Part shown: positions 6,755 to 26,338 of the stretch, one piece after another
Layout: the number at the start of each line of letters is the position of its first letter
Numbering within the stretch: the stretch's first letter is position 1
Virus record (IMG/VR): IMGVR_UViG_3300016476_001599
Location: 54,847-118,846 of that record
DNA length: 64,000 nucleotides
Origin: a virus
Direction: 5' to 3' (one strand)
The notes under the pieces: generated by a model
Database searches by the model: none
Told to the model about the DNA's origin: nothing
What the model saw: the letters and a program-made list of their open reading frames with translations, nothing else
Position numbers and translations under genes: made by a program

Positions 6755-7657
6755 TTGCCCGGTTATTGCAAAACAATCAAATACCAACCGTCTAGGTCTT
6801 GTTTACCCTACCGGTTGCTTTCTTCTTGTGTGCTGCACTTGAATCGAAATCGAAAAGCTTTTCACCGCGTTCTAATGCTTCAGTACCGTTATCGATTGCA
6901 GCTTAAGTCTTACGTTGCTGCGTTGAACGGTCGTCGCAAGCATGTTCAGCGTAAAGCCGATGAACTGGGTGTAGTGCTGTCTTCGATTGACTCCACGGAT
7001 TTCAACGGTGAGTTTCTTAAACTGGTGCGGCAGTGCAATTGCCCTGCTCCTGGTTGCAGCTACACACCTTCGCCGCTGTTTCACTGCGGAAACCCTAAAA
7101 CTTGCCCGTTTTGTTTTGTTCGACTGCGATTAATCCCAGTTTACGAGGGTGTTATGTCGCTCGGCGAATCTGTTTTAGCTAATTCGATGCTGATCGGCTG
7201 GTCGCGTAAGTGTTCCTTCAAAGATGGCTTACCGTTCTTTTCCCGTAGAACGGGTCCGCACGGGTGGACGAAAGCCGCTTTTAGTGTGCAAGTTGCAGTG
7301 CCTTTTTACGAACGCAAACTGCTGGCGGAACCCGAGGAGGTTCGCGGTCGGATTAAAAGGTTTGAGTACCTTCCGGTGATTTTCCACGTTGGACTGCACG
7401 TGGTTCCGGCGGATGGTAATGGGCTGGATGTCTTCCGTAAAAAGCGGGAGGCGTTAAAACTAACGTCGGTGCCTTACGCTTCGTTGGTTGGTTTGAGTCC
7501 GGAAGAGCGTGAGGCCCGTTTGCTCTCCGTTATGCAACAGCTTTTTGCGTTCCGCTGGGAACCGTTTTTCACTCCGGACGCGAAGCTTGTTTTTCGGACG
7601 GTTCACGATTGTTTTAGGGAGCAGAATTTAATTCGTTTTCAAAAGAGGAAAGACTGA
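6755..7657 (+). CDS. Cys-rich Zn-binding protein, possible replication initiator (alternative start 6875)
   Basis: CNCPAPGC...HCGNPKTCPFC; lies next to the inverted-repeat region. Confidence 0.45.
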   Translation: MPGYCKTIKYQPSRSCLPYRLLSSCVLHLNRNRKAFHRVLMLQYRYRLQLKSYVAALNGRRKHVQRKADELGVVLSSIDSTDFNGEFLKLVRQCNCPAPGCSYTPSPLFHCGNPKTCPFCFVRLRLIPVYEGVMSLGESVLANSMLIGWSRKCSFKDGLPFFSRRTGPHGWTKAAFSVQVAVPFYERKLLAEPEEVRGRIKRFEYLPVIFHVGLHVVPADGNGLDVFRKKREALKLTSVPYASLVGLSPEEREARLLSVMQQLFAFRWEPFFTPDAKLVFRTVHDCFREQNLIRFQKRKD

Positions 7658-9510
7658 TGTCAGAAAGAAACCGTAAAATTGCTGAGCATTTAAAAGCTCT
7701 CGCTTTGCTAATTGAAAGCGATTCCGTGTCGCAAACCTGTGCGCAATCGCTTCCAATCCCTGAAGGGTGGCGAGAGCTAAAGCCGTACGAAGTGCCCGAG
7801 GCAACCGATATGTTTGAGAGACTGGGCGGTTGGCATGCGAAAAAATATGTCGGCAGTTCCGAATACAAATGGTACGGCGTTCGCCACATTCGAAAGATCA
7901 AAACTGCCAACCCTTCGGAAACTCCGAATAGCCCGAAGTGGATTCCCAAGGTGGGCGATAAGGTGCGGGTGAACAAGCCAAGCAGGAGAGTTCACGGTAA
8001 GGTCGGTGTCGTTGTCAAGGACGATTCTCGCGAGTATGCGGTTAGGATTGACGGCGAAGATTTCACATCGTATAGCCTAGAAGCCCAATACCTTGAACTC
8101 ATCGCGGCGGCACCACCCGCCGACCATATTGCCGACGCCGACAAAATGGTACCGCCAACGGGTTACCGGTTGCTCGACAAGTCGGCAAAGGTCGAACCGC
8201 GAAAAGCTGGAGATTTGTTTTGGTCTTTAACGCTCGGGGACTGGAAAATCTTGTCTGACGAGGGCGAACAGGACGCAAACCGAGACGACTGGCCAGCATG
8301 TCGAAAGATCGAAACTGCCAACCCTCCGGAAACTCCGGACAGTTCGATCCCTGATCCTGGGCCGGGCTATCGATTGTTGAGCAAAGATCCGCCGGAGCGG
8401 GTTGTTAAGGGTGATGAGTTTTTTGATGGTTGCAAGTGGCTCGGGTCTGGAGTCTGGGTGCATGAAGGCGGGCCACAAGGGTCGTTCTACTACCGCCGCA
8501 AGATCGAGGAGCCAGCCAAGGAGCAAGAAACTCAGTACCGAGAGCCGACATACGCTGACCTTGCAAACGGGCCGATTGAGGTTGAGGTATGCGATAACAA
8601 AACAAACGAATTGAACTGGGTCAAAAGAGCACTGTACGCAGTGCTCCCAAGCAAGTGCAGATTTCGTTACGTTGTCGGTTCTTCCAGAGGTGATGGATTC
8701 ACGGAACACTACAAGTACGCTCGCATCGAGGTAGAGACTGCCAACTCTTCGGAAACTTCGAATAGTTCGCTGCCGTTTGCCGAACTGGTAAAGGGTTTGT
8801 CGCAAGCAATGCAGCGAGATCAGGATCTCGCATGGACTTGGCATTGCAACATAGCGACGGCATCGTGCGACGAAGGTGCTTGCCCTTCTGCGGCAAATCT
8901 TGCCGCCGCACGATTTATGCGTATTGCGTTCGGCGTCGATGTAACAACCTTTGACCAATGGAAGTCGGCTGAATGGCTGAGTTCGCAGCCGCTTGCTATA
9001 CCGGATGGGTGGAGGGAGTTGGAGCCGCACGATTTCCCAAGGCGAAGCGATATGCGTGAAGTTGACGGTTCTTGGGAGTACAACAACACTGATTCGGATG
9101 CAGAGTACAAGTATTGGAAAATTCGCGTAATTCGCAAGATCGAACAGTGGCCGGGCCACGTTCAAGGTGTTTGGGTTGAGGAAGCTGAGGAGAAGCTTGC
9201 CTTTACCCAGGACGAACTAGAGGAGTTAATTGAGAAACGGATCGCAGATCGAGAGCGGATCAAGAAGGAGAAGGAAGAAGCCGATGCGAACGCTAGCCGC
9301 AAGAGCGAGCCCACCGAATGGATTCCCAAGGTGGGCGACAAGGTGCGGGTGGTTGGAGGACTTGCGAATACTGTGGGCGAGGTCGGCATTATCAAGGCAT
9401 TCTGTCCAGTATTGAACGGGGAGTTTTTAGTCTTTACAAGCAATGAGCGTTGCTTTTTGGGGTGGTTCAAGAAAAATGACTTCGAACTCATCGAGGCCGC
9501 GCCACGATGA
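7657..9510 (+). CDS. modular hypothetical protein with KOW-like and repeated small domains
   Basis: WIPKVGDKVRV x2, TANxxETxxS x3, IPxGWRELxP x2, GYRLL x2. Confidence 0.8.
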   Translation: MSERNRKIAEHLKALALLIESDSVSQTCAQSLPIPEGWRELKPYEVPEATDMFERLGGWHAKKYVGSSEYKWYGVRHIRKIKTANPSETPNSPKWIPKVGDKVRVNKPSRRVHGKVGVVVKDDSREYAVRIDGEDFTSYSLEAQYLELIAAAPPADHIADADKMVPPTGYRLLDKSAKVEPRKAGDLFWSLTLGDWKILSDEGEQDANRDDWPACRKIETANPPETPDSSIPDPGPGYRLLSKDPPERVVKGDEFFDGCKWLGSGVWVHEGGPQGSFYYRRKIEEPAKEQETQYREPTYADLANGPIEVEVCDNKTNELNWVKRALYAVLPSKCRFRYVVGSSRGDGFTEHYKYARIEVETANSSETSNSSLPFAELVKGLSQAMQRDQDLAWTWHCNIATASCDEGACPSAANLAAARFMRIAFGVDVTTFDQWKSAEWLSSQPLAIPDGWRELEPHDFPRRSDMREVDGSWEYNNTDSDAEYKYWKIRVIRKIEQWPGHVQGVWVEEAEEKLAFTQDELEELIEKRIADRERIKKEKEEADANASRKSEPTEWIPKVGDKVRVVGGLANTVGEVGIIKAFCPVLNGEFLVFTSNERCFLGWFKKNDFELIEAAPR

Positions 9511-9782: not shown

Positions 9783-10099
9783 AACGAATCTACATTGCAG
9801 GGCCGATGACTGGAAAGCCGGATTTGAACAGGGCGGAGTTTGATAAAGCTGAGGATTTTATCGACGAATCATCGGAATGCGATTCAATCAGTTTCAATCC
9901 GCACCAAATTGGACGCATGCTTGGATGGGATGAGCAAACGCCGATAAAAGCAATTGCTTCGACACTGCTTCCCGACTTGGCTAGCTGCGATGCCATCTAC
10001 ATGCTACGCGGTTGGGAACAATCGAAAGGAGCTACAGCGGAACACGCTGTAGCGAAATGGATCGGGCTAGAGATCATTTATCAGGGGGAAGCGGAATGA
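9779..10099 (+). CDS. DUF4406 / nucleoside 2-deoxyribosyltransferase-like protein
   Basis: RIYIAGPMTG...NP...CDAIYMLRGWEQSKGATAEHAVA. Confidence 0.85.
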   Translation: MKRIYIAGPMTGKPDLNRAEFDKAEDFIDESSECDSISFNPHQIGRMLGWDEQTPIKAIASTLLPDLASCDAIYMLRGWEQSKGATAEHAVAKWIGLEIIYQGEAE

Positions 10100-11951: not shown

Positions 11952-12344
11952 CTAGCGTTGGCTGCTGACATGGTTCATTTTGCAATCGACAAACTCCGGT
12001 TGTTGAACCAGGTTCGTGATTTCGTTTTTAATCGCGACTCGTTCCCGGTTGTGGTTCCGGATAGCAACAGCGCGTTTGCCGATTTCGGCCAGACCTAGTT
12101 CCAGGTCTAGCCCTCTTCGCAGGTCGTATTCAAGATCCCACATTTTACCGTTGATTTTCTTCAGGCGGAAAATAAGATCCAAAAGCTCCGCATTGTCGTT
12201 GTCGACACCTTCTCGCAGGTAGCTAATTTGCTTCGAAAGCAGCTGTTTGTCTACTTCGGTTTCGGACAATCGTTCCATCTTCAGTTCTGCGATCGTTAGT
12301 CTGTCGCAGAGTTCGTTTATTGGCATTGGGATAGTTTTGATCAT
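11952..12344 (-). CDS. DUF6165-like protein (only credible minus-strand gene)
   Basis: PINELCDRLTIAELKMERL...LKKINGKMWDLEYDLR...NRERVAIKNEI resembles the DUF6165 pattern. Confidence 0.7.
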   Translation of the reverse strand: MIKTIPMPINELCDRLTIAELKMERLSETEVDKQLLSKQISYLREGVDNDNAELLDLIFRLKKINGKMWDLEYDLRRGLDLELGLAEIGKRAVAIRNHNRERVAIKNEITNLVQQPEFVDCKMNHVSSQR

Positions 12345-13452
12345 GTTTAGAAAAATTTTAGCTGTTAGTGATTTGCATTTGTCGGACACTATTTGGAAAC
12401 ACCGGCCTATCCATGGAGACAGTTACCACAGCTGGAACTACATTGTGCAATACGCTGTGACGTCGGGCGTTGACGCTGTAATTCTAGCGGGCGACATCTT
12501 GGACAAGCAACTAAATGTTGCAAATCCGGTTGCGAAGCTGAACGCTGGGCTTCTGAAGCTGCGGGACGCCGGAGTGACCGTGCTTTACAATCAAGGACAG
12601 CATGAGTTCCAACGCGACTTGCCTTGGATGGATGTGGCCGACTTGGGTGCAAAGCATTTAAAGGGAACGTCTGACTTCTGCTTTTCGAACGGCCTTCGGA
12701 TAGCTGGATTCGACTACTGCAACGAGAAAACTCTTGCGGAAAGGCTGGGTGAAATCGCAAAGGATTCTGGACAAGAGTATTTTCTTGTCTGCCACCAGGT
12801 CTGGAAAGATTTCATGGGTGACGTTGGAAAGACGCAAGGTTGCTTTGACGATCTGCCCGCAAACGTCAGATTTATGCTAACTGGCGATTTCCACCAAACG
12901 ATTGTTCGCGAGGTTAGCAAAGATTTGACGGTTTTAAGCCCCGGAAGCACGCATTTGCGTAGCTTGGCGGAGCCGGCGGAAAAGCATTTCTTCGAAATAA
13001 GTGTTAAGCAGAAAGGCTTGTCGATTGAAGTCCGCGACATACCGACTCGAAGGTACTTGGAAGTCAAAACAGGTACTTTGCCGTACTTACAGATTTCTGA
13101 GCAGGTTAAAACGTTTGTCGGACAAGATTTCGGCGATCTCCCGGAGGAGCTGCGGAAACCGATTGTTCGAATTGTCCACGGCAAGGATGATTTTGACTTT
13201 GTACGGCACATCAAAGAGAGTTTTGACAACCTTGCTCATTTGTTTTTCAAGCTGAAGACGATTTCTGTTGACGTTTTAAGCGTGGACACCACTACGGACG
13301 AGAGCCATTTGACGCTTCAAGCTTGTTTGCCGTTTGAGATCGACCCGCAGGGATCGCCTGCGGCCTATGGTTTGGCGTCCGAGCTTTTGGCGGGTGCGGA
13401 TCCGAACACTGTACTTGAACGTTGGTTAGAGGAGAATTTAAATGCAAATTGA
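12343..13452 (+). CDS. Mre11/SbcD-like metallophosphoesterase nuclease
   Basis: SDLH, GDILD, GQHE, CHQ and GDFH motifs; directly upstream of a Rad50-like gene. Confidence 0.9.
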   Translation: MFRKILAVSDLHLSDTIWKHRPIHGDSYHSWNYIVQYAVTSGVDAVILAGDILDKQLNVANPVAKLNAGLLKLRDAGVTVLYNQGQHEFQRDLPWMDVADLGAKHLKGTSDFCFSNGLRIAGFDYCNEKTLAERLGEIAKDSGQEYFLVCHQVWKDFMGDVGKTQGCFDDLPANVRFMLTGDFHQTIVREVSKDLTVLSPGSTHLRSLAEPAEKHFFEISVKQKGLSIEVRDIPTRRYLEVKTGTLPYLQISEQVKTFVGQDFGDLPEELRKPIVRIVHGKDDFDFVRHIKESFDNLAHLFFKLKTISVDVLSVDTTTDESHLTLQACLPFEIDPQGSPAAYGLASELLAGADPNTVLERWLEENLNAN

Positions 13453-15583
13453 GACGGTTGAGCTGAAGAACATAGGTCCCCACAGGGAGTTAACCGCAGA
13501 GTTGGCTTCTGGCATTGTCGGCATAGTCGGCGCCAACGGTGCGGGTAAGAGTTCGTTCGTGAACGCCATCTACGCCGCTTTTACGGGCGATTTCAAACGT
13601 TTCAATGCCGCAACAAAGGCTGAGGTCATTAACAATCAGGCAGCTAAGCACGAAAAGGCTTGGATTAAGATTGTTGGCAACCACGGCGGTAAGCCGTTTG
13701 AGCTGGTTCGAAGCCTGCGACCGAACGAGGTGACCTTCACATACGGCGACAGTGAGATCGAGACGGCTTCGCAGGTCAACGACGCAGTTTTCAAGCTGCT
13801 GGGCCTGACTCCAAGCGTTTTTGATCGTTACGTGTTCGTCGAGCAGTGGGAAATGTTTAGTTTTCTCGATGATACGGAAAGCGTGCGAGCTAAAGCTTTT
13901 CAGCACTTGTGTGGGGTCGAGTCGGCTACTCTGTTACATAAGGCTTGCGTGCAATTCCGGGACAGGCTCACGGCAAAACAGTCGATTGACAACAGCTTAG
14001 ACCTTGAAAGCAACATTGATCAGATTCAGCGGGAAATGCTGCGACTTAAGCGTACGAAGTTTGAAGGCTTGCTGTCTAACGATGAGGCAGCTGAATTGCG
14101 ACAGAAGCGGGATCTTTATCTAAAAGTTTCGCAGCTTGAGTCGCTTAAGTCGCAGGGACTTGTTGATCTCGAAGCATTGAAAAATGTTCTAGTCGACAAA
14201 GAGAAAGTTTTCGAGGCTGTGGAAACAAAGTTTAACAGAGCTGAAACCTGGTTGAAAAAGTACAAGACTTTGATTGAAGCTGCTGTGGGTACTCTACGTG
14301 ACTGGCAGGCACAGAGAGCGCTTCAATCCAAGCAAGTAAATTGCCGCTCACTTATTGGTGACTGGGAGTCGAAGGTTGAAGCGACCGAGGCAGAAATAGC
14401 TTCGCACGTTGCAAAAGCTCCAAGCTTTTCAAAAGAGGAACTTGCGGGCTTGAAAGCAGAACTTCAAGGTTTAAAAACAAAAGCGAAGGAGTTAAAAACC
14501 GCCGCCAGTAACTTGGAGCAAGGCAGTCGGGCTGTGTGTTCTTCGTGCATGCAAGACATTCCTGCGTCTCATTTGGTGAAATTAAAAGCTGAAGCGGACG
14601 CTGTCGAAAGGTTGGCAGTGGAGAAAGCAAGACAGCTCATGACCTTACAGAACTATTACGACCGCGCGGAATATCTGCTTGAGTTACGAAGAGAGCAGCA
14701 AGGTCTTTTAACAAAATACCAAGCGGAGTTGCAGGGACTGTCGCAGGTTTCGCAGTCGCTAGTAACGCAAGATGCGGCAGACAGGGCAACGGCAGCCATC
14801 GAGCAGCGTAAAAAAGCGGAAGCGTCGCTTGCGGAGAGCAAACCGAAGCGCGACAGGTTGAAAGCGGAATTAGACGTGCTGAGAGGCCGCTTATCGAATG
14901 CTGAAAGTCAGCTGCAAGAGTACGAGTCTCAGCTTGCAGCTTTGACAACGCATCTCGGGGCGGCTGACGCGTCGATACAGGCGAAGCTCGAACGTCACGA
15001 CGAGGCTTTACGTCAAAAGGCTGCGGTTTCTGCGGAGTACAAGACTAACGCAACTCAGTTGGGTATTTTGCAGACGACGTTGAATAAGCTGAAAACCTCG
15101 CTTGCCCGCGAAGCCAAGACCAGGTCGTTGGCCGAAGTAGTGGACAGGGTCGCTAACGCTTTTCATTGGTCTGGGCTGCCTAAGCGGGTAGCGCAGAACA
15201 ATTTGATGCAGTTGGAAGCGGACATTAATGCGCAGCTCGAGCTTTTCAGTTCTCCTTTTTTGGTTGAAACAACTGACGATCTATCTTTCAAGGCGACTTT
15301 CCCAGGCAAACCCAGCGTGTCGGCAAGGCAGCTCAGTGGCGGGCAGAAAGTTATCTTGGCCATTGCTTTTCGGGCGGCTTTGGATAGGCTTTTCGGGCAT
15401 AATATTGGAATGTTGTTTCTGGACGAACCTACGGCGGGATTGGACGCAGACAACGTTGCTTACTTCCATGACGCGATGCAGAGCTGGTCTGCAAACGTCG
15501 GGGCGCAGAAGCAGATTATTGTCATCACGCACGTCCAAGACATGACAAGTGCCTTTGACCAAATTGTAACGATCGATAAATGA
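13442..15583 (+). CDS. Rad50/SbcC-like SMC ATPase
   Basis: Walker A GANGAGKS, coiled coil with CSSC zinc hook, LSGGQ signature, LFLDEPT, ITH. Confidence 0.95.
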   Translation: MQIETVELKNIGPHRELTAELASGIVGIVGANGAGKSSFVNAIYAAFTGDFKRFNAATKAEVINNQAAKHEKAWIKIVGNHGGKPFELVRSLRPNEVTFTYGDSEIETASQVNDAVFKLLGLTPSVFDRYVFVEQWEMFSFLDDTESVRAKAFQHLCGVESATLLHKACVQFRDRLTAKQSIDNSLDLESNIDQIQREMLRLKRTKFEGLLSNDEAAELRQKRDLYLKVSQLESLKSQGLVDLEALKNVLVDKEKVFEAVETKFNRAETWLKKYKTLIEAAVGTLRDWQAQRALQSKQVNCRSLIGDWESKVEATEAEIASHVAKAPSFSKEELAGLKAELQGLKTKAKELKTAASNLEQGSRAVCSSCMQDIPASHLVKLKAEADAVERLAVEKARQLMTLQNYYDRAEYLLELRREQQGLLTKYQAELQGLSQVSQSLVTQDAADRATAAIEQRKKAEASLAESKPKRDRLKAELDVLRGRLSNAESQLQEYESQLAALTTHLGAADASIQAKLERHDEALRQKAAVSAEYKTNATQLGILQTTLNKLKTSLAREAKTRSLAEVVDRVANAFHWSGLPKRVAQNNLMQLEADINAQLELFSSPFLVETTDDLSFKATFPGKPSVSARQLSGGQKVILAIAFRAALDRLFGHNIGMLFLDEPTAGLDADNVAYFHDAMQSWSANVGAQKQIIVITHVQDMTSAFDQIVTIDK

Positions 15584-16404
15584 CAGATAGACAAACCGTT
15601 TGTTTGCACGCAGACTCCAACGGCGACGTTTGGAGTCTACAGGCCGGAAAAGGCATAGTTAAACCCAGGTTTGACGTGTTACACGCGTCAGACTTTTGGG
15701 TTGTAGGCCTGCCGTCGAACTATGCAATCCTGACGGAATTGTATTTCGACACTGTAAGGCGTTACAAAGCGAACGAAAAAAGTCTCTCCAGCATATATGT
15801 CGGCTCGGTTTTTCCTTGGCGTCATTTTGACTATAAGTCTAAGGATTTCCTGTATGACGTTGTCGCAGTTTCGCCTGCCAAGCGGCAAGCTTCGCATTGG
15901 CACCTTCTGGACGATGCATCCATCAGCACGTACTTACTTGCTAAAAGTCTATACGACGCATCTTACGAAATGGCGGAATTGGCCTGGCAAAACCATTGTT
16001 TAGCCCCTGTTTTTTCGAGACTAGGATGCGATGCAAATTTAGATCCTGCGATGTTTTTGGTTGCTGACATTTTGGATCCCCGTTGGTTCATGGCAGCAAA
16101 CGGAAGTTTCAAGGCTTTGGAGCGGTACTTTGGGCTTCAAAAGAAGGCGCACAGACTGGCAGACGCGAAATTTTTCATGTTGTCGGACGCCGTTAAAGCG
16201 ATACCTGGCAATAGTTTTTTGCACGCGGAGGCCGAGGTCAGGAATCCGAGAGACAAGCTTTTTGCGCTGCCTAAATTGTTTTTGCATTTTTTTGTGCGGC
16301 ACTGGCTTTCGTGTCAAACGCGACTTTCGTTTTTCGATCCGTCTTTGTTTTTCAAAAGTCAGAAAGCGAAGAAAATGTACTCGACTATTTTTGAGCCACA
16401 GTGA
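15580..16404 (+). CDS. degenerate IS110 transposase C-terminal / Nop-like protein
   Basis: AMFLVADILDPRWF...KALERYFGL resembles IS110 AAxLLAEIGDxxRFxxxxxLxxYxGL; C-terminal KLFLHFFVRHW helix. Confidence 0.45.
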   Translation: MTDRQTVCLHADSNGDVWSLQAGKGIVKPRFDVLHASDFWVVGLPSNYAILTELYFDTVRRYKANEKSLSSIYVGSVFPWRHFDYKSKDFLYDVVAVSPAKRQASHWHLLDDASISTYLLAKSLYDASYEMAELAWQNHCLAPVFSRLGCDANLDPAMFLVADILDPRWFMAANGSFKALERYFGLQKKAHRLADAKFFMLSDAVKAIPGNSFLHAEAEVRNPRDKLFALPKLFLHFFVRHWLSCQTRLSFFDPSLFFKSQKAKKMYSTIFEPQ

Positions 16405-16883
16405 CAGAGTTTATCGCACGCTTACAATTTGTTTCGCCTTGCCTGGGCAATGCTAAAGAACCCGGGTCGGGAAGGTTTTTGTTTAGTAGAAATCGCGAAG
16501 GAAAGATAGTTTTCTTGCCTGCTTGGCACAGATCGAACATGGTGATGGCAGCCAATTTGATATCAGACTATCGCGAAGAAGTGCGACGTATTCTGTGGGG
16601 CATGGTGGTCGAGGTAGAGCTACGTGACAAACGCTGGCATCGAATTTACTATACGAATGCTGCAGGCAGGGAACGTTACTCTGTTCACGAGTCAATCGCT
16701 GCGGGCCAGTTGGCAGAAATAAGCCTTTCGCTTCCTGAGAACCTGCCGGTCGATGCTTTTTCGCGTTTGCTGGGAGTTGCAGGTAAGCACAAAGGCCTAT
16801 CACCGTGGCAACCCGGCACGTATGGTCACTACAGGGTTGTTGACGTGTTTGCGAGACCGACTCTGTTTACGGATAGTGAATAA
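16401..16883 (+). CDS. stand-alone Cas7/Csm3-group RAMP-like protein
   Basis: RLQFVSPCLG, FSRNREGKIVFLP...RS, HESIAAG and C-terminal G-rich loop AGKHKGLSPWQPGTYGHYRV. Confidence 0.6.
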   Translation: MTEFIARLQFVSPCLGNAKEPGSGRFLFSRNREGKIVFLPAWHRSNMVMAANLISDYREEVRRILWGMVVEVELRDKRWHRIYYTNAAGRERYSVHESIAAGQLAEISLSLPENLPVDAFSRLLGVAGKHKGLSPWQPGTYGHYRVVDVFARPTLFTDSE

Positions 16884-16987
16884 AAAACCACCCGAGTTGT
16901 GACCCTCGGGTGGTAATTGGCTTAGCTGTCGTCGTTGCAGCTGATTCCATTTTAGCCGAAACCCTTTTACTTACAATGGGACACAGG
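16883..16987. ncRNA. structured intergenic element with two stem-loops; the first reads as a minus-strand intrinsic terminator
   Basis: ACCACCCGAG-ttgtgacc-CTCGGGTGGT next to an A-run; nested TAGCTG/CAGCTG and TGGCT/AGCCG stems. Confidence 0.5.
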
Positions 16988-18523
16988 ATGGGTAAAGAAG
17001 TTGTTTTGATAAAAAACGGGAACATTTTGCTTGTGGACCCGGGCGTTGTAGACCCGAAAATAGTGGAGATTCTGGGGCCCAAACTTAGTTTCGAGTCGTT
17101 CCGTAAGCTGGTCGGTCGTGAACTGTACGACGCAAAAAGAAACGGTTTAAAGACCTTCGCTATTGATCGGCACATTCTTTTCGAGCTTGATTTCAAAGGG
17201 AGAGTTGCAGCTCCGTTTGGTTTTTGGAAGACTGTGTCGGATACATTGAAGTCTGCAGGATATGCCGTTCGTTATCACGACAACACCCCGACTGTCGTGA
17301 ATCAGCAGCACAAGGCAGCAAAAAACAAAGCGTTACGTTTCGAGATATTCATGGACAACATCGCGGATTATCAGTTGCGGGATCATCAGCCTGAGTTTTT
17401 GAACGCGATCATTAAAAACAGCTGTGGTCGTATAGACTGCGCACCTGGCTTCGGTAAATCGTTTATGATTGGAATCGTGGCTTCCGTTTTTCCGCGGGCA
17501 AGAATAGACGTCGTGTCCAAGCGGGTAGCTGTTTTGAGGGACAGAATTTATCCGGAGCTGACTTCTATGGTCGGCGATGTGGGTATCGTGGGCGGCGGAA
17601 AAAGCATTAAAGACCGCCGAGTGATGTGCTACACGGCTAACTCGTTGAAGCACAGCAAGGCGGATGCGGACATACTGATCGGTGACGAGTGTCACGAGCT
17701 TGCTGCGGATAAAGCGTCGGAAGAGCTGATACGCTATCAGGACAGTCGAAATTACGGCCTGTCGGCTAGCCATGACGTTCGTTACGACAACAAGGACTTA
17801 CGGTTAGAAGGTATATTCGGTCCCATTATTTACCGTGTTCCGTACCAGACGGCGCAAGGCTCAGGGCTTGTTGTGCCCATCGAAATACGGTGGACAAACG
17901 TCAAATTAGACTACAATCCTTGTGCAGGCGTAGACACAGACGACTCGGTAAAGCGTAAACGCTTCGGTATTTGGACTAACGAGCTGCGTAACATGGCTAT
18001 CGCCAATGACGCGAGATCTTACGACAAGGAAACGCAGGTTCTAATCACGGTCGACACAATTACTCACGCTTTTCACCTGAAGAAGCTGTTACCTGAATTT
18101 ACACTGGTGTACGCTGACGAGGGTCTTACGCCCGAGGAGTTGCAGAACTACAAGCGGCAGAAGTTTTGTTCTGCAACGGAGCCGCTGATGGATTTCGCGA
18201 GGAAAAAAATGTTGACGCAAAAATTCGAGAAAGGCGAGCTCAAGAAAGTGATCGCGACAACGGTTTGGAATGTTGGTGTTTCTTTCAATAACTTGGCTGT
18301 GCTTGTCCGAGGTAATGGCGGCAGCAGTGCGATCGACAGCACGCAGATTCCTGGCCGAGTAAGTCGCATTGCGGAGGGTAAAACTTTCGGTATTATCCAC
18401 GACTACCTTGACGGGTGGGATAAAGGCTTTGACCGCCAAACCAGAGGGCGGCTTAAGGTTTATCGCCAACACGGTTGGGTGCAGAAATTTCCTGACTCGC
18501 AGCTTGAAAGGCTCTATTCTTGA
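16988..18523 (+). CDS. superfamily 2 DNA helicase (UvsW-like)
   Basis: LRDHQ, APGFGKS, DECH, SAS and QIPGRVSR motifs. Confidence 0.9.
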   Translation: MGKEVVLIKNGNILLVDPGVVDPKIVEILGPKLSFESFRKLVGRELYDAKRNGLKTFAIDRHILFELDFKGRVAAPFGFWKTVSDTLKSAGYAVRYHDNTPTVVNQQHKAAKNKALRFEIFMDNIADYQLRDHQPEFLNAIIKNSCGRIDCAPGFGKSFMIGIVASVFPRARIDVVSKRVAVLRDRIYPELTSMVGDVGIVGGGKSIKDRRVMCYTANSLKHSKADADILIGDECHELAADKASEELIRYQDSRNYGLSASHDVRYDNKDLRLEGIFGPIIYRVPYQTAQGSGLVVPIEIRWTNVKLDYNPCAGVDTDDSVKRKRFGIWTNELRNMAIANDARSYDKETQVLITVDTITHAFHLKKLLPEFTLVYADEGLTPEELQNYKRQKFCSATEPLMDFARKKMLTQKFEKGELKKVIATTVWNVGVSFNNLAVLVRGNGGSSAIDSTQIPGRVSRIAEGKTFGIIHDYLDGWDKGFDRQTRGRLKVYRQHGWVQKFPDSQLERLYS

Positions 18524-19317
18524 TGTTTTCAAAGCCTCCAAAACCCTCAAACAGATCTAAGGCCGTTCCCGCCGCAAACGCTTCAAACGACAACCTTTCA
18601 GGGCATGTTTTGCTGTTCAAGCGGACGTATATCTTAGAGCGTCGAGTCTTAGACATGTGTCGATCAGAGGGCGACGCTCCTGTGTACAAGCCTGCGGCCA
18701 GTCTTGACGGTGGTAAACGCTACAACACGCCGGAAGAGAAAGAGAAGCAGAACAGCTGGGAATCGGCTTACCGTGCAGTTGCTGCCATCTGTAAGCCTGC
18801 CACGCCGATCGAGTACGTGCGTATATTGTTCAACTCGCTACGGTCTAGTTCGTTGGCGACTCCGACTGTGTTGCAGTTGGCTTCGGCGGCTAACGCACAA
18901 ATTGTGCGAGACTACGCAAAAGACGCATTTAAACGACTTCAGTCGAGTTTTATAACGGATTCGGCTAGAGCTAAAACGGAAATACTTTTGCGGCTGGGGG
19001 GAAAATCCGGGACTAGGCAGGCTACGTTTACGGCGATATATTGCACCCTGCTGGATGCACGTTTGGGTCTATCCCCGCTTTACCGTTATTGTTTAGCGAC
19101 GGATGCACTTAAAAAAGCACAGGACGAGCGTAAAGCTGGTGTGAACATGGATTTTAGAATTTCGCGTATGGAAACCTACGTGAAAGACTTGGAATTCTTG
19201 GCAGCTTTCGACTATACCGTTTTTCCGGAAATTTACAGTTCGGTTTACGGAAGTAGTTTGCCGTCTGGGTTTAAAGAATTGGCTTTGTCCTTGGTGGATT
19301 CCGCCCGGGACGTTTAA
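18520..19317 (+). CDS. hypothetical protein between the two helicases
   Basis: Coupled 265-aa ORF. Confidence 0.75.
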   Translation: MMFSKPPKPSNRSKAVPAANASNDNLSGHVLLFKRTYILERRVLDMCRSEGDAPVYKPAASLDGGKRYNTPEEKEKQNSWESAYRAVAAICKPATPIEYVRILFNSLRSSSLATPTVLQLASAANAQIVRDYAKDAFKRLQSSFITDSARAKTEILLRLGGKSGTRQATFTAIYCTLLDARLGLSPLYRYCLATDALKKAQDERKAGVNMDFRISRMETYVKDLEFLAAFDYTVFPEIYSSVYGSSLPSGFKELALSLVDSARDV

Positions 19318-19328
19318 AGGAAATCGTC

Positions 19329-21023
19329 ATGAGTGGGCAGCAAAAAGTGCTGTCAGAAGCTCATTTGAAACTCTTTTTGGCTGTCTTGTTTCGCAACGAG
19401 CAAGTATTCGAGAGTTTCAAATCAAGCCTGACAGCGAGTCATTTTGACTTTGCAGGGTATCAACTGCTCTACAAGGTTGTTTGGGATTATTTTAATGAAA
19501 ATCAATGTCTTCCAGATTTGTCGCAGATCAACGCGGACATTGCCAGCTACATCGAGAATGAATACTTCTCGCTGGACGATGCCGAGTACGACGCGTTAGA
19601 CGATTTTTTGTACTACGCTTTCGACCCTGGCCTGTTCAAAGAACCGGACGGACCGAAAAGCGTCAAGGCGGAAAATTTCGCTTTTAACTTTGCGACTAAG
19701 TTTTTGCTGGAGCAGCAAAAACGAGCCGCTATTTCTCAGCTAAGTGACCTCAGCGACGTTGGTCAATTGCCGGCTATTTTCCAACAGGCTACAGCTCAAA
19801 CCGAGTCGTTGATGGGTTTGTCGGTTTCCGGAGGCAGAAACCTGACGCTTCCGGTTGGTTGGGATAAAAGGGCCGGTGTCTACTTAGAGTCATGCGGTGT
19901 CAGTTTCTTGGATACCTTTCTCGAGGGTGGAACTGCTCCGGGCGAAGTTTATGGCGTGCTGGCGCCATTCGGATCCTACAAGACTACTTTGGCTGTGATG
20001 CTTTGGTACGCTGCAGCCGAGCAAGCGTGTAGCAAGTACTTGAGCGGAGAGTCGAACGGTAAAAAGGGTTTGTCGGTTCTCGTGTCTTACGAGGCTCCGT
20101 TGCAGGACGAGTTGAGGGATCGTCTGCTGATGTATGCAGCGAGGATTTCCCGGACGCGTCTTCAAGCCATGGGTACGAACGGTGTTTCTATATTTGGAGT
20201 CGACCCGGAGTCGCCGCAAGATTACGAAAAGATTCTTTTTAAAGAGCAGATAGCGAATGGTGTTTTTGAGCCGGAGATGCAGCGTTATGAACGAGTTTTG
20301 CCGGTCGTTAACGAGCACACAGTTTGTCTTGATTTCACCGGTAGGCACGAGAAATTTAAGACGGCGGGTAACCGCGGCGTGTCGGAAATTGTGTCGGCCA
20401 TAAAAGCGGAATTAAAGAGGTGCGGGCCGGATTATTATATCTCGACTGTAATCGTTGATTACGTTGGTCTCATGGTTCAAAGGGATGTGACGGTTGATCC
20501 CAAGGAAAAACAACGTGAGGACAAGTTGTATCAGCTCGCAGGATTGCAGCTTGTCAATCGGGTGGCTATGCCTTTCAACACGCCGGTTTGGGCATTTCAC
20601 CAGCTTTCTGGTGAAGCGAATGCCGTTTTGAATCCGGCAAAAAGGATGGATCACACGCAAGCGAAAGGTTCGAAAAGCTTTGCCGAGAACCTTGCGTTTT
20701 GTTTTGTAGGTGGACGTTTAAACGACGATTACATGGGTCAACTTTGTTGCTCTAAGCATCGTCGCGCGGGCCAGCACAATCCTGTTTTGTTGAAAGTTGA
20801 CGGTTCGTTCAACATGGTTACGGCCCCGGAAGGCTACACTATTGATCGGCTTGGAAAAATTGTCCGGAAAGACAGCTTAGGCGCTTCAACCATCTTGTCA
20901 CCAGACGTCTTTAATGTAGTTCCAGGTATGGCTGCATCCGATGCCGATCCTTTTTCCGACTACGATGAAGAAAGTAATATGGATTATGCTTCGGAGCAAA
21001 TTTCAAATTTAAGCGAAGAATAG
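19329..21023 (+). CDS. DnaB-like (SF4) replicative helicase
   Basis: Walker A APFGSYKTT, SYE, VIVDYVGLM, FHQLS, GSKSFAEN, SKHR; upstream of primase. Confidence 0.8.
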   Translation: MSGQQKVLSEAHLKLFLAVLFRNEQVFESFKSSLTASHFDFAGYQLLYKVVWDYFNENQCLPDLSQINADIASYIENEYFSLDDAEYDALDDFLYYAFDPGLFKEPDGPKSVKAENFAFNFATKFLLEQQKRAAISQLSDLSDVGQLPAIFQQATAQTESLMGLSVSGGRNLTLPVGWDKRAGVYLESCGVSFLDTFLEGGTAPGEVYGVLAPFGSYKTTLAVMLWYAAAEQACSKYLSGESNGKKGLSVLVSYEAPLQDELRDRLLMYAARISRTRLQAMGTNGVSIFGVDPESPQDYEKILFKEQIANGVFEPEMQRYERVLPVVNEHTVCLDFTGRHEKFKTAGNRGVSEIVSAIKAELKRCGPDYYISTVIVDYVGLMVQRDVTVDPKEKQREDKLYQLAGLQLVNRVAMPFNTPVWAFHQLSGEANAVLNPAKRMDHTQAKGSKSFAENLAFCFVGGRLNDDYMGQLCCSKHRRAGQHNPVLLKVDGSFNMVTAPEGYTIDRLGKIVRKDSLGASTILSPDVFNVVPGMAASDADPFSDYDEESNMDYASEQISNLSEE

Positions 21024-21044: not shown

Positions 21045-22145
21045 GTGACAGACAACAAACCCTTGAACGTGTTGCTTTATAATCGAATCAAAGCGACGTT
21101 TAAGAACGTCAGAATAAGCCATCAAAACGAGAAGCAAGAAAGAAAGCTACGAATTGATTTTCTTACTAACCGCGAAATGATCGACATACGGAACTGGGGA
21201 GAGTCTTATTCCGTTTGCTGTCCTTTCTGCAATGATACTCGTTTCCGTTGCGTGATAAATCACAGATACGGGACGGTTGACGAGCATAACCGGGTTCAAT
21301 CCAGACTCGTAGTTTGTTTTAACGCCGGTTGTCCGTTGGCGTTGAAAAACCCGGAATGCTATGACCGTCTTGAGCAGATGCTTACAGGGCGAAAACTTTT
21401 TGACCTTGCTAAAGCGGAGATAGCTGTCGGCAGCGCGTTGAACATTGATAATTTCAGGATGAATTGGCCCGGTGATGTCATTCGTGTCGACAAGCTTCCG
21501 GACGATCATCCGGCGACCTTGTGGCTTGCGGGAGTGCGAGGTTTCAACGTAAAGCGACTGGGAACATATTACAACGTTCACTGGTGTGACAAAAGCAAGC
21601 ATGCTTTGTGCAGGGACCGAATCGTCATACCGATTTACATGAACAAGAAGATGGTAGGTTTTCAAACAAGGCCTCCGTACGATACGGACTGGAAATTGGC
21701 AAGCGTTCCAAAGTACTACACCGCAAAGGGTACGCCCAAAAGACAGATAATTTACAACCTGGGGAATATGATGAAATGCGAGACCGGAATCGTTGTAGAG
21801 GGGGTTACGAGCGTTTGGCGGGGCGGTGATCAGTTCGGTGCGATACTCGGTTCAGCTGTGACGCCGGCTCAATATGATTTGCTTGTAAAACACTTTAAAG
21901 ACCATTCTGTTGTTTTGCTGCTAGACCCGGATGTTTTTCTGGAAAGCGCGAAGCGTAAGGTTTTGGACAGCTTGATGACGGTGGAAAAACGATTGAAGTC
22001 TGATTTGAAAGGCGGTTGCTGTTCGGTTTGGTTACCGGAGGGAACCGACCCGGCAGATTTTGACCCGGCTTTCCTTAGGGAATATATCGCTAATGCGGCG
22101 GCTGAGCAGGGTGTCACAGTTTCGTGGAGGAAACGCAATGGCTAG
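21045..22145 (+). CDS. DNA primase (Zn finger + TOPRIM)
   Basis: CPFC...CFNAGC; RIVIPI...GFQTR; IVVEG, LDPD, DPAD. Confidence 0.9.
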   Translation: MTDNKPLNVLLYNRIKATFKNVRISHQNEKQERKLRIDFLTNREMIDIRNWGESYSVCCPFCNDTRFRCVINHRYGTVDEHNRVQSRLVVCFNAGCPLALKNPECYDRLEQMLTGRKLFDLAKAEIAVGSALNIDNFRMNWPGDVIRVDKLPDDHPATLWLAGVRGFNVKRLGTYYNVHWCDKSKHALCRDRIVIPIYMNKKMVGFQTRPPYDTDWKLASVPKYYTAKGTPKRQIIYNLGNMMKCETGIVVEGVTSVWRGGDQFGAILGSAVTPAQYDLLVKHFKDHSVVLLLDPDVFLESAKRKVLDSLMTVEKRLKSDLKGGCCSVWLPEGTDPADFDPAFLREYIANAAAEQGVTVSWRKRNG

Positions 22146-25100
22146 AAAAATAGAAAAGCTCGGCGGTATTGTTAGTTCTTCCGGCAAGTTAAGCGTGGCC
22201 GAACAAAGAACCAAGCTGGCACATTTGGAAAAAATATTGAAGGGGTCGGAGATTTACGGGTTAGACTCGCCAGGTCTGCCTACGTTGTATGGTGGAAGCG
22301 CCTTTCTACAGTACGCGCAGGCAAAAGGCGACGACAGCGATTCTTTCATGTATGATCTCGTAAGGGCCGCTCTCCGCGACAGTTCGTTTGTTTTGCCGGT
22401 TGAAACTGCGGCGCATCAGACGAAAGATGCTAAGTTCTTGCCGGGCCATTTGTGGGGTTCTACCGTAGAAGGGCCCAGGCGAGCCAAGATCATGATCATT
22501 AACAAAAACCCTTGGGTTTTGTCGATGAAAAACGGTCGTTGTTTCGCCGACGAAGACGGAAAAATCCTCATGGATATTTTTGCAAGTTGCAAAATGACGA
22601 ACATTGGAAACATTTACGTCACGCATCTTGTGAAATTTATGCCGCCAAACGGCAAGACAACGTTTAGAGCCCAGTGGGTTAAAGACGGCGCCTATCTTCT
22701 GGCGCACGAGATAAAAATCGTGCAACCGGATTATATTTTGTGTCTGGGGACCGACGCCAGCAAAGCACTGCTGGGAGACGGTCATGGTGTTAACGACATG
22801 CTGGGCAAGGTCGTTAAATACCGTTACAACATAGCGCTGGACGCAAGGGACGCAGAATCGAGCTGGCTTGAAGCGAGTGTGATGACCGTAGTTCATCCGC
22901 GTCAAACTGCGAGGGACCAGTCGGCCATTCGCGCGTTGGAGAACGGGCTAGCCTCTTTCGTCAATTTGACGCAGGGTAAAAGCATTAGCTTCGACACTAA
23001 TGTAGATCACAACGTTGTTTCTTCGTTCGACGAATTGATTTACTATTTCTCGGAAATCGACAAAGATTACGACCCGGTCGAGGAGGTTATTTCGGTTGAC
23101 GCAGAGTGGAACGGACAGCATCCAATTAACGAAGGTTCGTACATGCGAACAATTCAGCTCGCATGGAAACCTGGCAAGGCTATTGGTATCATTCTGCATC
23201 TTGCAGGAGGTGCCGTTAATCCGGACATTGATGCTAAAAACAATTCCGAGGTTACGGCATTGTTTAATGCTTTTTTCAAAGGAGGCAGTGTAACAGTCAC
23301 GCGGGAAGACGGTTCGGAAGCTGTTCTGAAGTTCAAACGTAAGCGTGTGGTCGGTCACTTTTTCAACGCTGACTTGGAGTGGCTTGTCGACTATGGGATA
23401 GATATTCAGGAGTGTTTTTCGTGCAAGCTCTACGACTTGGTCCTGCCGAGTTCTGACGCTGTACCTAAAGCATCAAAGCGACTCTTTAATTGCTATCTTG
23501 AAGACGGATTTAAGCCGGGAGAAACTGTTCCAGCGTGGTATCGTACGAAGTACGAGGGCGGGGCAGACACTGGCTTAATGTGCCACGCAATAGAGGAGAC
23601 GGCTAACTATAAGTTGGAGCTTCTTGCGGCCAGGTATCTTAATTCCCATAGGTACGACGCGGAGTTGCAAGAGTGGAAGACGAGCTACTGTAAACAAAAA
23701 GGGCTGTCCTCCGAGTCACTTGAAGGTTACGGCGAATGTCCGGACAATGTTCTACTGCCTTACGGCATGTGGGACGCGGATGTTACGCTTCGTCTTTACT
23801 ACAAGTTTAACCCGCTGCTGGATAGCGATTACGACGGTAACTGTTGCAGGGAAGCTTTCTGGGAGGCTCAAATTGCAACGCCGGCTGTGCTTGACATCCA
23901 CCGCAGCGGTATGACTCTTGACAGATCGCGTGTCGATTTTTTGACGGTTCAATTTATCGACGGTCGAACCGCTTTAGAAACCAAGATACGCGAAAGCTTA
24001 AATTGGCCGGACTTCAATATTCGGTCATTAACGCAGGTCCGAGAGGTTCTTTTCGGGCACCTGCTTAACGGCAAGCGTGATCCTGAAACAGGTGGTCCCG
24101 TTCGCGTGCGACCAGCCGATGCAATTTCTTTAAACCTTATGCCGCTTTACGATACAAGTAAACCGCCAAAGCCATGGGAAGAAATTCGGCAGAAAAACGT
24201 TGAAAGTCAGCACAGTCCTTGTACTAGCAAACAAGTTTTGTCCATCTTGGTGCAGACAGTTTCCGACGCGAAAGCGAGAGAAGTGCTTGGTATGCTGCGA
24301 GATCACCGTTTTCTTGATCAAGCGCTGAAAACGGTTTTAAGGCCGCCGAACACCGACCCGTGTACGCACGAAACCTGTTATGACGAGGATGGCAACATGG
24401 AGTATGCCAAAGGTCTCGCCGCCTCTTGCTGTTCTGATGGAAAAATTAGGACGCACATATATCAAACGAAGGAGACCGGAAGGTGGTCGAGCGCTAGGCC
24501 CAATTTGACGAACATATCGAAAAAGCGGGACAAGGACTTTAAACGCATTCTGGGCAGCAAGTACAAGTACAAACTGCGAAGTATCTTGAAAGCCTCTCCG
24601 GGCCATGTGTTTGTTGAAGCGGACTATGTTGGTGCAGAGCTTTTCGGTATGGCGGTTATGTCTGGCGACACGGCTATGATCGAGCATGCGAGGCGTAACC
24701 AGTTGGAGGACACGCACCCTAATTACTATGACATTCACTCGAATGTGGCAGTTAACGCCTTCAAGCTGAAATGCCCTCCGACCAAAAAAGGACTGGAACA
24801 GATCAAAAAGGACCACCTTCGCAACGTGGCAAAGTCTGTTATCTTCGGCATAGCTTACGGTAGAGGCGCAAAGGCTATTTCGGTGGGTGCTAAGGAAGAA
24901 GGTATCGATATCTCGGTAGACGAGGCAAAGGCGGTTATTAAGACCATTTTTGCAACGTACCCGAAACTCGTACCTTTTTTCGAGGGTTGCAAGGAGCGTG
25001 CACGCGGTTACTACCTGGATAGCAATCATCAACCTGTTCCCGTGCCGCGATACCTGTGCAACTGTTTTGGGCGATTTAGGCGTTTTCCGGATAGCTTCGG

Positions 25101-25659
25101 CGCCAGCGATTTGGAATCCGAGTTTGAACGGCAAGCTATGAACTTCCCGATTCAAAGCATGATCGCCTCGGTGGCGAGCAGAGCCGTCGGTTACTTGATC
25201 GACTACAGGAACAAACAGATCAAGCTTGGTCATAATATGTTCAAGCTGCTTCTGCAAATCCATGACGCACTAATCTTGGAGGTTCCGTATCGCTACGTTA
25301 AACACGTGTGCGAGTATGTCATTCCTACGTACATGCGAAAAGCCGTCCCGATTTTCCCAACGCACATTAGCGGTGCGCTCGAGGGTGAGCCTACAGGTGC
25401 AGGTCCCTTTTATCTTGGTATCGAGGGGGAGGTGACTACGAACTGGGGCGAGCGTATATTTGACGCGGACGCTAAAAGACTTGGTTTGCCTGTAGGGCGT
25501 GGCGTTGTAGATGGCTGCGTTGTGCACTATAGTCAAACGCCGAAAGCGGGCGAAGAGCGATCGGTCGTAGACGTCTCGAAACCTCGTGCTAAGCGAGACA
25601 TAACGCCTCCAGATCCGTATGTACCTGGGAAGTTCAAGGCATCAAAACGTAGGCGATAA
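22138..25659 (+). CDS. family A DNA polymerase with N-terminal uracil-DNA glycosylase-like domain and 3'-5' exonuclease
   Basis: GGAGG RBS; exonuclease DAE and YGMWDA; ETGRWSS; motif A EADYVGAEL; motif B RNVAKSVIFGIAYG; motif C QIHDALI; UDG-like EIKIVQPDYILCLG...HP. Confidence 0.93.
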   Translation: MARKIEKLGGIVSSSGKLSVAEQRTKLAHLEKILKGSEIYGLDSPGLPTLYGGSAFLQYAQAKGDDSDSFMYDLVRAALRDSSFVLPVETAAHQTKDAKFLPGHLWGSTVEGPRRAKIMIINKNPWVLSMKNGRCFADEDGKILMDIFASCKMTNIGNIYVTHLVKFMPPNGKTTFRAQWVKDGAYLLAHEIKIVQPDYILCLGTDASKALLGDGHGVNDMLGKVVKYRYNIALDARDAESSWLEASVMTVVHPRQTARDQSAIRALENGLASFVNLTQGKSISFDTNVDHNVVSSFDELIYYFSEIDKDYDPVEEVISVDAEWNGQHPINEGSYMRTIQLAWKPGKAIGIILHLAGGAVNPDIDAKNNSEVTALFNAFFKGGSVTVTREDGSEAVLKFKRKRVVGHFFNADLEWLVDYGIDIQECFSCKLYDLVLPSSDAVPKASKRLFNCYLEDGFKPGETVPAWYRTKYEGGADTGLMCHAIEETANYKLELLAARYLNSHRYDAELQEWKTSYCKQKGLSSESLEGYGECPDNVLLPYGMWDADVTLRLYYKFNPLLDSDYDGNCCREAFWEAQIATPAVLDIHRSGMTLDRSRVDFLTVQFIDGRTALETKIRESLNWPDFNIRSLTQVREVLFGHLLNGKRDPETGGPVRVRPADAISLNLMPLYDTSKPPKPWEEIRQKNVESQHSPCTSKQVLSILVQTVSDAKAREVLGMLRDHRFLDQALKTVLRPPNTDPCTHETCYDEDGNMEYAKGLAASCCSDGKIRTHIYQTKETGRWSSARPNLTNISKKRDKDFKRILGSKYKYKLRSILKASPGHVFVEADYVGAELFGMAVMSGDTAMIEHARRNQLEDTHPNYYDIHSNVAVNAFKLKCPPTKKGLEQIKKDHLRNVAKSVIFGIAYGRGAKAISVGAKEEGIDISVDEAKAVIKTIFATYPKLVPFFEGCKERARGYYLDSNHQPVPVPRYLCNCFGRFRRFPDSFGASDLESEFERQAMNFPIQSMIASVASRAVGYLIDYRNKQIKLGHNMFKLLLQIHDALILEVPYRYVKHVCEYVIPTYMRKAVPIFPTHISGALEGEPTGAGPFYLGIEGEVTTNWGERIFDADAKRLGLPVGRGVVDGCVVHYSQTPKAGEERSVVDVSKPRAKRDITPPDPYVPGKFKASKRRR

Positions 25660-26336: not shown

Positions 26337-26338
26337 AA

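Follow-up and report, generated by a model that had tools for sequence, protein, structure and literature searches.

Two separate worlds of RNA-guided systems are built around RNA-holding core proteins, Tas in one and Cas7 in the other, and to our knowledge the two have not been reported together to date. The main text of Faure et al. (2025, PMC12045711) describes the Tas proteins as Nop-domain proteins, with or without an HNH or RuvC domain, which are encoded beside dual-repeat or stem-loop TIGR arrays, the latter having no conserved repeats. In its main text, the preprint of Xu et al. (2026, bioRxiv 10.64898/2026.09.09.750476) sets out a long divergent branch of compact TasR proteins without a coiled coil, carried by densely packed viral genomes in which no array is detectable, and asks whether these array-less proteins use another guide source. 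Here we describe a locus of an uncultured freshwater phage, one of a family of large phages, in which a small TasR-like protein appears to be encoded directly beside a minimal Cas7-like protein and a candidate small RNA. The locus lies in a 64,000-nt stretch of DNA, positions 54,847 to 118,846 of IMG/VR virus record IMGVR_UViG_3300016476_001599, which is called the window below and is the final 64 kb of a 118,846-bp virus contig with a completeness rating of 55% (positions are those of the window unless the contig is named). Two overlapping open reading frames (ORFs) on its + strand, ORF-A (15580-16404, 274 amino acids) and ORF-B (16401-16883, 160 amino acids), follow a Rad50-like gene and are separated from a superfamily 2 (SF2) helicase gene by a gap of 104 nt (16884-16987). 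A first-pass annotation, made from the letters of the DNA, had guessed at an IS110/Nop-like protein for ORF-A, a Cas7-like RAMP for ORF-B and a structured RNA in the gap.

Five close homologues of ORF-A were found, and a profile search of 1.84 billion proteins gave 44 representatives. An AlphaFold2 (AF2) model was made from an alignment of 38 sequences, consisting of the window protein, the five close homologues and 32 of 43 further representatives (the 11 weakest, with E 1.6e-7 to 5e-4, being omitted), and had a mean local confidence (pLDDT) of 90.0 and a predicted template modelling score (pTM) of 0.88. In a Foldseek search of the PDB at E<=0.001 the model matched just two chains, both of TIGR-TasR (9mty; E 6.5e-4). 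Structural comparison with VIA aligned 227 of the 294 residues of TasR 9mty_B with a span of ORF-A from residue 5 to 272 (Z 11.7), and matched residues 114-272, the Nop domain, to five TasH entries (Z 7.7-8.2) and residues 3-258 to the IS110 recombinase ISCro4 (PDB 9t56; Z 6.6-7.0). The remaining VIA rows covered residues 1-110 only, against RNase H/RuvC-like domains with Z up to 6.6, and included TnpB, Cas12, resolvases and YqgF domains (Z 4.5-6.3). As modelled, ORF-A is composed of an RNase H/RuvC-like domain (residues ~1-110) followed by a Nop-like helical domain (~112-272), so that the TasR layout of an N-terminal RuvC-like and a C-terminal Nop domain runs over the whole protein. The IS110 recombinase shares this two-domain layout, and IS110 recombinases use a single adjacent non-coding RNA and no array, which is also the arrangement suggested here by the one neighbouring candidate RNA. 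ORF-A differs from IS110 in that its match to ISCro4 is weaker than that to TasR, in having no Transposase_20 match and in being a fixed, syntenic, single-copy gene with no mobility.

Sequence comparisons gave no family name to ORF-A. Pfam, PHROG, NCBIfam and PADLOC returned zero family matches, none of the 38 family members matched Pfam Nop or Transposase_20, a six-frame Pfam search of the 118.8-kb contig found neither of these two families, tblastn against 50,697 phage records gave no match, and the best similarity in the ESM Atlas did not exceed 0.77. Within the RuvC-like domain, D12, the Asp that closes strand 1, is present in 26 of the 38 sequences, that of this window included, and E53 is acidic in 23 of 38; apart from these two, no column of the domain is acidic in at least 60% of sequences, and neither a conserved acidic RuvC tetrad nor a DEDD set was found across the 38. 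N47, at the start of the first helix, is an invariant Asn. Because no acidic tetrad is kept and N47 is invariant, the RuvC-like domain probably does not act as a canonical nuclease. TasR proteins with an inactive RuvC are known, and thus loss of the tetrad does not put ORF-A outside the TasR family. The longest helix in the model has 22 residues and no long helix pair is predicted, which would fit a missing coiled coil. In being phage-borne, only 274 amino acids long and without a predicted long helix pair, and in lying in a dense genome with no detectable array, ORF-A fits the array-less compact TasR branch as that branch is described in the main text of the preprint. It differs from TasR in lacking a sequence-level link and a conserved acidic tetrad, in having no dual-repeat or recognisable stem-loop array, and in being coupled to a RAMP gene inside a Mre11-Rad50/helicase module.

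For ORF-B, 42 relatives were found in a set of 5.8 billion proteins, of which 38 were aligned (one identical protein and three fragments were left out), and the AF2 model had a pLDDT of 95.3 and a pTM of 0.86. Foldseek matched this model to 128 PDB chains at E<=0.001 (best E 7.4e-7; template modelling scores 0.58-0.67), and among the matches listed every row was a type III, type VII or Cas7-11 CRISPR complex. VIA, run over 48,161 chains, gave Z scores up to 11.7, with 145-154 of the 160 residues aligned at Z 9-11.7; 49 of the 50 rows among the matches listed were CRISPR entries, and the matches were ordered with Csm3, Cmr4 and gRAMP first, then Cas7 of types IV and I, then Cas5 and Cas6 types. 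The top match in BFVD (E 1.4e-7) carries the name "Cas system-associated RAMP superfamily protein". A RAMP-like Gly-rich loop (AGKxKGLSPWxPGxYG, residues 127-142) is near-invariant in the 39 sequences, and other conserved positions are LGN, W42, N46, W66-D67, D71, R92 and H96-E97. By predicted fold, ORF-B is a minimal, 160-residue RAMP of the Cas7 group, most like Csm3 and Cmr4. Structure prediction and Foldseek thus bear out both protein guesses of the first-pass annotation, that for ORF-A being more precisely TasR-like, and on these models the two fold assignments are very probably correct.

ORF-B shares its RAMP core and Gly-rich loop with the type III Cas7 proteins (Csm3, Cmr4, Cas7-11 domains and type VII Cas7), and differs from them in its size, in its identity of 5-13%, in standing outside Pfam RAMPs, and in that no CRISPR array is found, nor any Cas1 or other Pfam RAMPs member in the contig or in three related genomes. 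The catalytic Asp of Csm3 lies in the loop after the first strand; the conserved D67, D71, R92, H96 and E97 of ORF-B lie outside that loop. Like ORF-A, ORF-B gave zero family matches in Pfam, PHROG, NCBIfam and PADLOC and no tblastn match among the 50,697 phage records. The RAMP lead from the ESM Atlas was weak (0.77), the nearest clusters being unnamed viral proteins (0.96-0.97). A complex prediction for ORF-A with ORF-B scored 0.00 against a mark of 0.32, which speaks neither for nor against their pairing.

Related loci were collected by a pattern search with the ORF-B alignment, which gave 26 IMG/VR contigs and 2 contigs from metagenome-assembled genomes (MAGs); the contigs reach 235 kb, and two of the three larger relatives checked are rated 100% complete. 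Mre11, Rad50, ORF-B, the helicase, DnaB, primase and PolA occur in identical order in 28 of 28 loci, at 25-96% identity, and the ORF directly upstream of ORF-B matches the ORF-A profile in 27 of the 28, in agreement with the conserved linkage expected from the first-pass annotation. For 15 of the 19 unique pairs the ORF-A/ORF-B junction lies between -20 and +6 nt, and both genes are single-copy in this contig (G000) and in three related genomes (G002, G003 and G004). In the one exception (L009, positions 9975-10001) Rad50 abuts ORF-B, and no ORF-A is found on the contig, which is 51.7 kb long and rated 23% complete. Since the pair is single-copy and keeps to one position in all but one of the 28 loci, it looks like core genes and not like a mobile island; the pattern fits core genes, unlike that of a variable defence or counter-defence island, and the two genes almost certainly form part of a core conserved module. 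A tblastn search of phage records with the SF2 helicase matched Bacillus phage G alone (26% identity), and as the phage-record searches were otherwise empty there is no cultured relative for comparison. The two MAG contigs (L027 and L028) carry the replication module in bins named Gemmataceae and Nanopelagicales; they are probably phage contigs binned with bacteria, and these names are therefore no guide to the host.

Guide arrays were sought at several scales. No Rfam family (CRISPR repeats included) and no tRNA was found in the window, and no interspaced non-coding repeats were found in the window, in the 118.8-kb contig or in a complete relative of 204,794 bp with 93% identical proteins, either as tandem repeats with TRF or by recurrence of 7-10-mers; the repeats that these scans did find were all spaced by multiples of 3 and are coding repeats. 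Neither a dual-repeat TIGR array nor a CRISPR array was found in the contig or the complete relative. A scan for large-loop hairpins, aimed at stem-loop arrays, gave 1049 hairpins against 742-806 in shuffled sequences, and is poorly discriminating in that the shuffles themselves gave 45-65 clusters. Cas1 and Pfam RAMPs were absent from this contig and the same three related genomes, cas5, cas6, cas8 and cas10 not having been sought individually. The first-pass statement that CRISPR arrays and cas genes were not to be seen agrees with these searches.

The reading that we favour, to which we would give a probability of roughly 40%, is that ORF-A and ORF-B have been domesticated by the phage as an RNA-binding module of its replication apparatus and belong to no defence island. 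On the models, the odds that the pair binds RNA at all would be a little short of even. A working analogy is Nop5 of the box C/D small nucleolar ribonucleoprotein, in which, according to the main text of PMC12045711, an inactive RuvC-like N-domain recruits a partner enzyme and the Nop domain binds the guide. By this analogy ORF-A would act as a Nop5-like scaffold whose inactive RuvC-like domain holds its partner and whose Nop domain holds a structured RNA, and ORF-B, as a single Cas7-like RAMP subunit, would hold a single-stranded stretch of the same RNA. The analogy has its differences, in that Nop5 is absent from the fold lists of ORF-A, there is no Pfam Nop match, and neither fibrillarin nor L7Ae, for which no dedicated search was made, came up.

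The main rival to this reading is that both proteins have kept their folds only and act without a guide, on DNA, together with Mre11-Rad50 and the helicase, the gap element being an unrelated antisense RNA. ORF-A would then be a structure-specific DNA binder or nuclease in a NurA- or resolvase-like role, and ORF-B a single-strand binder or mediator. Such a role would suit the fixed slot in a recombination/replication operon and the empty array scans, and the N-domain of ORF-A does also resemble Holliday-junction resolvases and RuvX/YqgF (Z 4.5-5.7) and keeps D12 in most members. The whole of ORF-A, however, finds its best matches among RNA-guided Nop-domain proteins (Z 11.7, compared to 5-6 for resolvases), its acidic tetrad is not conserved, the RAMP structural neighbours of ORF-B are all RNA binders, and a conserved small transcription unit, described below, directly adjoins the pair. 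A NurA/HerA-like reading of ORF-A and the helicase was considered as well; NurA was absent from the ORF-A fold-match lists, an absence that does not decide against it. We regard guide-less action on DNA as somewhat unlikely.

The limits of the gap follow from the start of the helicase, the frame of which is open from a GTG at 16910 and which the alignment of relatives places at ATG 16988. A gap is present at this point in every relative (56-194 nt). Its analysis used 20-22 unique loci, the identical duplicates (L002, L004, L010-L012, L014 and L020) being left out throughout, L001 being left out of the promoter-score count, the gene-start ranking and the cognate matrix described below, and L021, where no start site was predicted, being left out of the ranking and the matrix. 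The + strand of the gap folds with -35.4 kcal/mol (z -3.47; 1 of 200 shuffles was as stable), in keeping with the structured gap of the first-pass annotation; the element is better read on the minus strand. On the + strand the hairpin at 16887-16914 has an A-run before it and no T-run after it, and the same hairpin read on the minus strand is the top terminator-like site of the region, with 10 pairs followed by TTTTTTAT. In the relatives too the U-rich tail follows the hairpin on the minus strand only. Upstream on the minus strand lies a sigma-70-like promoter (TTGTAA-16 nt-TAAAAT, 16949-16976) with a scan score of 9 of 12, and a -10 box is conserved across clades in an alignment of 12 gaps (ATTnTA on the + strand, TAnAAT on the minus strand). 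Promoter scores of at least 9 of 12 were reached on the minus strand in 13 of 21 unique gaps and on the + strand in 0 of 21, compared to 6.5% of 840 random stretches from the same loci. The predicted product in the window is a minus-strand RNA of ~60 nt, running from 16941 down to 16882 (both ends being predictions), with a short 5' hairpin, a single-stranded linker, the terminator hairpin and a U-tract. In the relatives the product would measure 65-118 nt, with a larger 5' hairpin, the loop of which often contains ACACACC, and the linker CCGCUACAC; the hairpin loops of the small RNA measure 8-11 nt.

Covariation agrees with this strand and structure. Compensatory changes occur at 10 of the 11 terminator pairs; 93.9% of terminator cells can pair, compared to 76.3% in shuffles (0 of 500 reach the observed value) and 29-47% with slid partners; and the wobble cells comprise 6 that are G.U on the minus strand (A.C on the +) against 2 the opposite way. 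A covariance model built from 12 gaps found a single strong minus-strand match per locus (54-75 bits, compared to at most 21.5 bits on the + strand), and this contig and two larger relatives had one strong match apiece. A recurrent phage promoter-like element was considered as well and dropped, a motif search having found the gap motif at its own place only. Taken as sequence patterns, these features make it fairly likely that the gap is a minus-strand small RNA gene with its own promoter and terminator. The oop RNA of lambda is likewise short, lies in antisense orientation among replication genes, and has both a promoter and an intrinsic terminator of its own, and the candidate resembles it in these respects; it differs in having no sequence relation to oop, in being wholly intergenic and in having a target that is a lead only.

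It is rather unlikely that the gap instead holds no small RNA gene and consists of an intercistronic terminator, or of hairpins that stabilise or process the mRNA, together with expression signals for the helicase. Hairpins between cistrons are common in phages, and in one locus (L007) the stricter scan found neither promoter nor terminator (it found both in L026 and L022). At 32962-32991 of the contig, outside the window, there is a + strand terminator stem ACCACCCG...CGGGTGGT plus T-run which is nearly equal to the minus-strand terminator at 16887-16914; the near-identical stems suggest that one terminator family serves in either orientation, which would allow for a + strand role in the gap. 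Such a role is at odds with the U-tract, which follows the gap hairpin on the minus strand only, an A-run preceding it on the +, and with the conserved minus-strand -10 box, the one-sided promoter scores and the balance of wobble pairs set out above.

To return to the domesticated RNA-binding module, its best candidate RNA ligand would be the ~60-nt minus-strand transcript of the gap, although that the pair uses this RNA is doubtful. The likeliest role would not be DNA cleavage but RNA-directed (antisense) regulation, either of how replication genes are expressed or of how replication is initiated, because in several relatives (those of the window's own clade not among them) the 5' part of the small RNA has complementarity to the DnaB-like gene around its translation start. 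L016 and L017 have exact complements of stretches of the small RNA, 12 and 13 nt in length, immediately upstream of their DnaB-like genes, and in most relatives a locus-specific copy of the motif stands beside the ribosome-binding site upstream of dnaB. As whole-locus sliding duplex energies were noisy, a ranking of gene starts and a matrix of cognate and non-cognate pairs were used in their place. Among the 5-9 conserved gene starts per locus, that of dnaB took first place as predicted partner in 10 of 20 unique loci and second place in 6, and in the 20 x 20 matrix the cognate RNA/leader pair came top in 5 loci and within the top two in 9. We treat this complementarity as a lead, not as a finding. 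In most relatives (L005, L006, L009, L016, L017, L018 and L026 among them) the dnaB leader carries a GGUGUGU-type motif beside the ribosome-binding site, whose sequence follows that of the + strand of the gap locus by locus.

At its most specific, the proposal would be that a Nop-domain (Tas) protein and a Cas7 RAMP form one ribonucleoprotein (RNP) on the neighbouring small RNA which is essential in phage replication, and this we consider unlikely. Such an RNP could hold the RNA on its target and so gate expression of the replicative helicase; alternatively, it could make or stabilise an R-loop from which replication begins, next to a helicase of the R-loop-removing kind. The R-loop origins of T4 would be the analogy for replication started in this way. 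According to the abstract of PMC3016281, R-loops prime replication at T4 origins.

A number of observations weigh against the reading of a domesticated RNA-binding module. The link of ORF-A to Tas is one of structure as modelled: the profile of 38 sequences found nothing among PDB sequences at E<=10. For ORF-B, 0 of 39 members match Pfam RAMPs (PF03787), and the six-frame search of the contig for this family was also empty. The locus that has no ORF-A keeps ORF-B and the minus-strand small RNA unit, and the small RNA may act as a plain antisense regulator independently of both proteins. The covariance model misses the nine most distant loci, and the lack of both promoter and terminator in L007 under the stricter scan belongs here as well. 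No RNA-type run was present among the listed sequencing runs that carry the locus. The dnaB complementarity fails in the clade of the window, where the cognate pairs rank 16, 10 and 11 of 20 and where the dnaB leader, which separates dnaB from the gene before it, is just 12 nt long (region 19290-19340 in the window). The complementarity test was made post hoc, after two matches had been seen, on loci that are mutually related, and GGUGUGU is common to many dnaB leaders.

A programmable DNA-targeting system as put forward in the first-pass annotation, in which a Tas-like/Cas7-like RNP would steer Mre11-Rad50 or the helicase, guided either by the neighbouring small RNA or by a stem-loop tigRNA that escaped detection, is possible, less likely than the main rival and in our estimate quite improbable. 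The nearest folds, TasR, TasH and IS110, all target DNA with RNA (main text of PMC12045711), the pair adjoins nuclease and helicase genes, and stem-loop TIGR arrays, having no conserved repeats, could escape the scans. Against this, the 118.8-kb contig and the complete 204.8-kb relative hold no dual-repeat array, the loops of the small RNA are too small for two spacers of 8-12 nt and the box C/D motifs on the dimensions given in that text, the RuvC site of ORF-A is not conserved, and core single-copy conservation is unlike that of accessory targeting systems. The weakest idea, also raised in the first-pass annotation, is an anti-CRISPR decoy, a phage mimic of Cas7 that would poison the type III or type I complexes of the host; a Cas7 fold without cas partners is what it would predict, and it is nevertheless very improbable given the 5-13% identity of ORF-B to solved Cas7 proteins, the absence of a PADLOC match, the coupling to a Tas-like gene, and the fixed, single-copy, core position of the pair in the replication module across 36-93% identity.

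The genes around the pair, all on the + strand, form a phage replication-recombination module that runs from Mre11 to a polymerase. A Mre11/SbcD-like phosphoesterase (12343-13452; Pfam Metallophos E 1.3e-5, PHROG 1649 and the SbcD-like PHROG 100) is followed by a Rad50/SbcC-like ATPase (13442-15583; SMC_N 3.3e-20, SbcC_Walker_B, PHROG 77 2.8e-45). The stop of Rad50 overlaps the ATG of ORF-A as ATGA at 15580-15583, and the stop of ORF-A overlaps the GTG of ORF-B as GTGA at 16401-16404, so that the chain from Rad50 through both ORFs to the gap and helicase is as first annotated. The SF2 DNA helicase (ResIII + Helicase_C; 16988-18523, start by homology; PHROG 16 2.5e-39 and Pfam ResIII) is followed by a conserved 265-amino-acid protein (18520-19317) with no family in the four libraries and a tblastn match in 27 of 28 loci, a DnaB-like replicative helicase (19329-21023; PHROG 19 1.3e-14), a DNA primase (21045-22145; PHROG 47 2e-33) and a family A DNA polymerase with a UDG family 4-like N-domain (22060-25659; NCBIfam PolA 2.9e-40 and UDG_fam4 1.1e-13, each below its cut-off). 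Upstream of Mre11 a minus-strand ORF of 145 amino acids (11952-12389), with no PADLOC or NCBIfam match, overlaps the Mre11 start by 47 nt. Nearly all genes of the window are on the + strand, and GC skew is positive across the whole of it. DNA of the locus was present in 9 DNA sequencing runs from 8 studies with freshwater or aquatic labels, half or more of the locus words being present in just 1 of the 9, which may be the sample from which the contig came.

Elsewhere, window positions 1107-1831 (within an ORF at 1036-2070) hold ~48 copies of a 15-nt tandem repeat that encodes a pentapeptide repeat, with a shorter second copy of the repeat unit at contig 26110-26535. Coding repeats of 9 and 18 nt, GGN CCN-rich and collagen-like in look, lie outside the window at contig 17560-18272 and 19351-19413. 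An ORF of 617 amino acids (window 7657-9510) is built of small modules joined by repeated linkers of the ETANPxETPNS type, and long perfect hairpins with stems of 17 bp and 15 bp occur at window 59481-59517 and 62977-63017, the second followed by a T-rich tail.

The words RAMP, Cas7, Rad50 and Mre11 are absent from the main text of both PMC12045711 and bioRxiv 10.64898/2026.09.09.750476, and literature searches found no link of Tas with RAMP/Cas7 or with Mre11-Rad50 and nothing further on array-less TasR. For an array-less TasR-like protein, a RAMP partner, a setting among replication genes and a small RNA close by thus appear to be new. The locus offers a concrete candidate for the guide source of array-less TasR proteins, namely a ~60-nt minus-strand RNA one gene away, together with a RAMP partner. 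Should a Tas/Cas7 RNP on this RNA prove true, it would be the first natural partnership of two great RNA-guide lineages and would explain where array-less TasR proteins obtain their guides. Proteins as small as these (274 and 160 amino acids) would, if programmable, be of interest to tool builders. For the virus itself, the core, replication-linked slot of the pair suggests that RNA-guided machinery may be domesticated for a virus's own DNA metabolism, and not for conflict.

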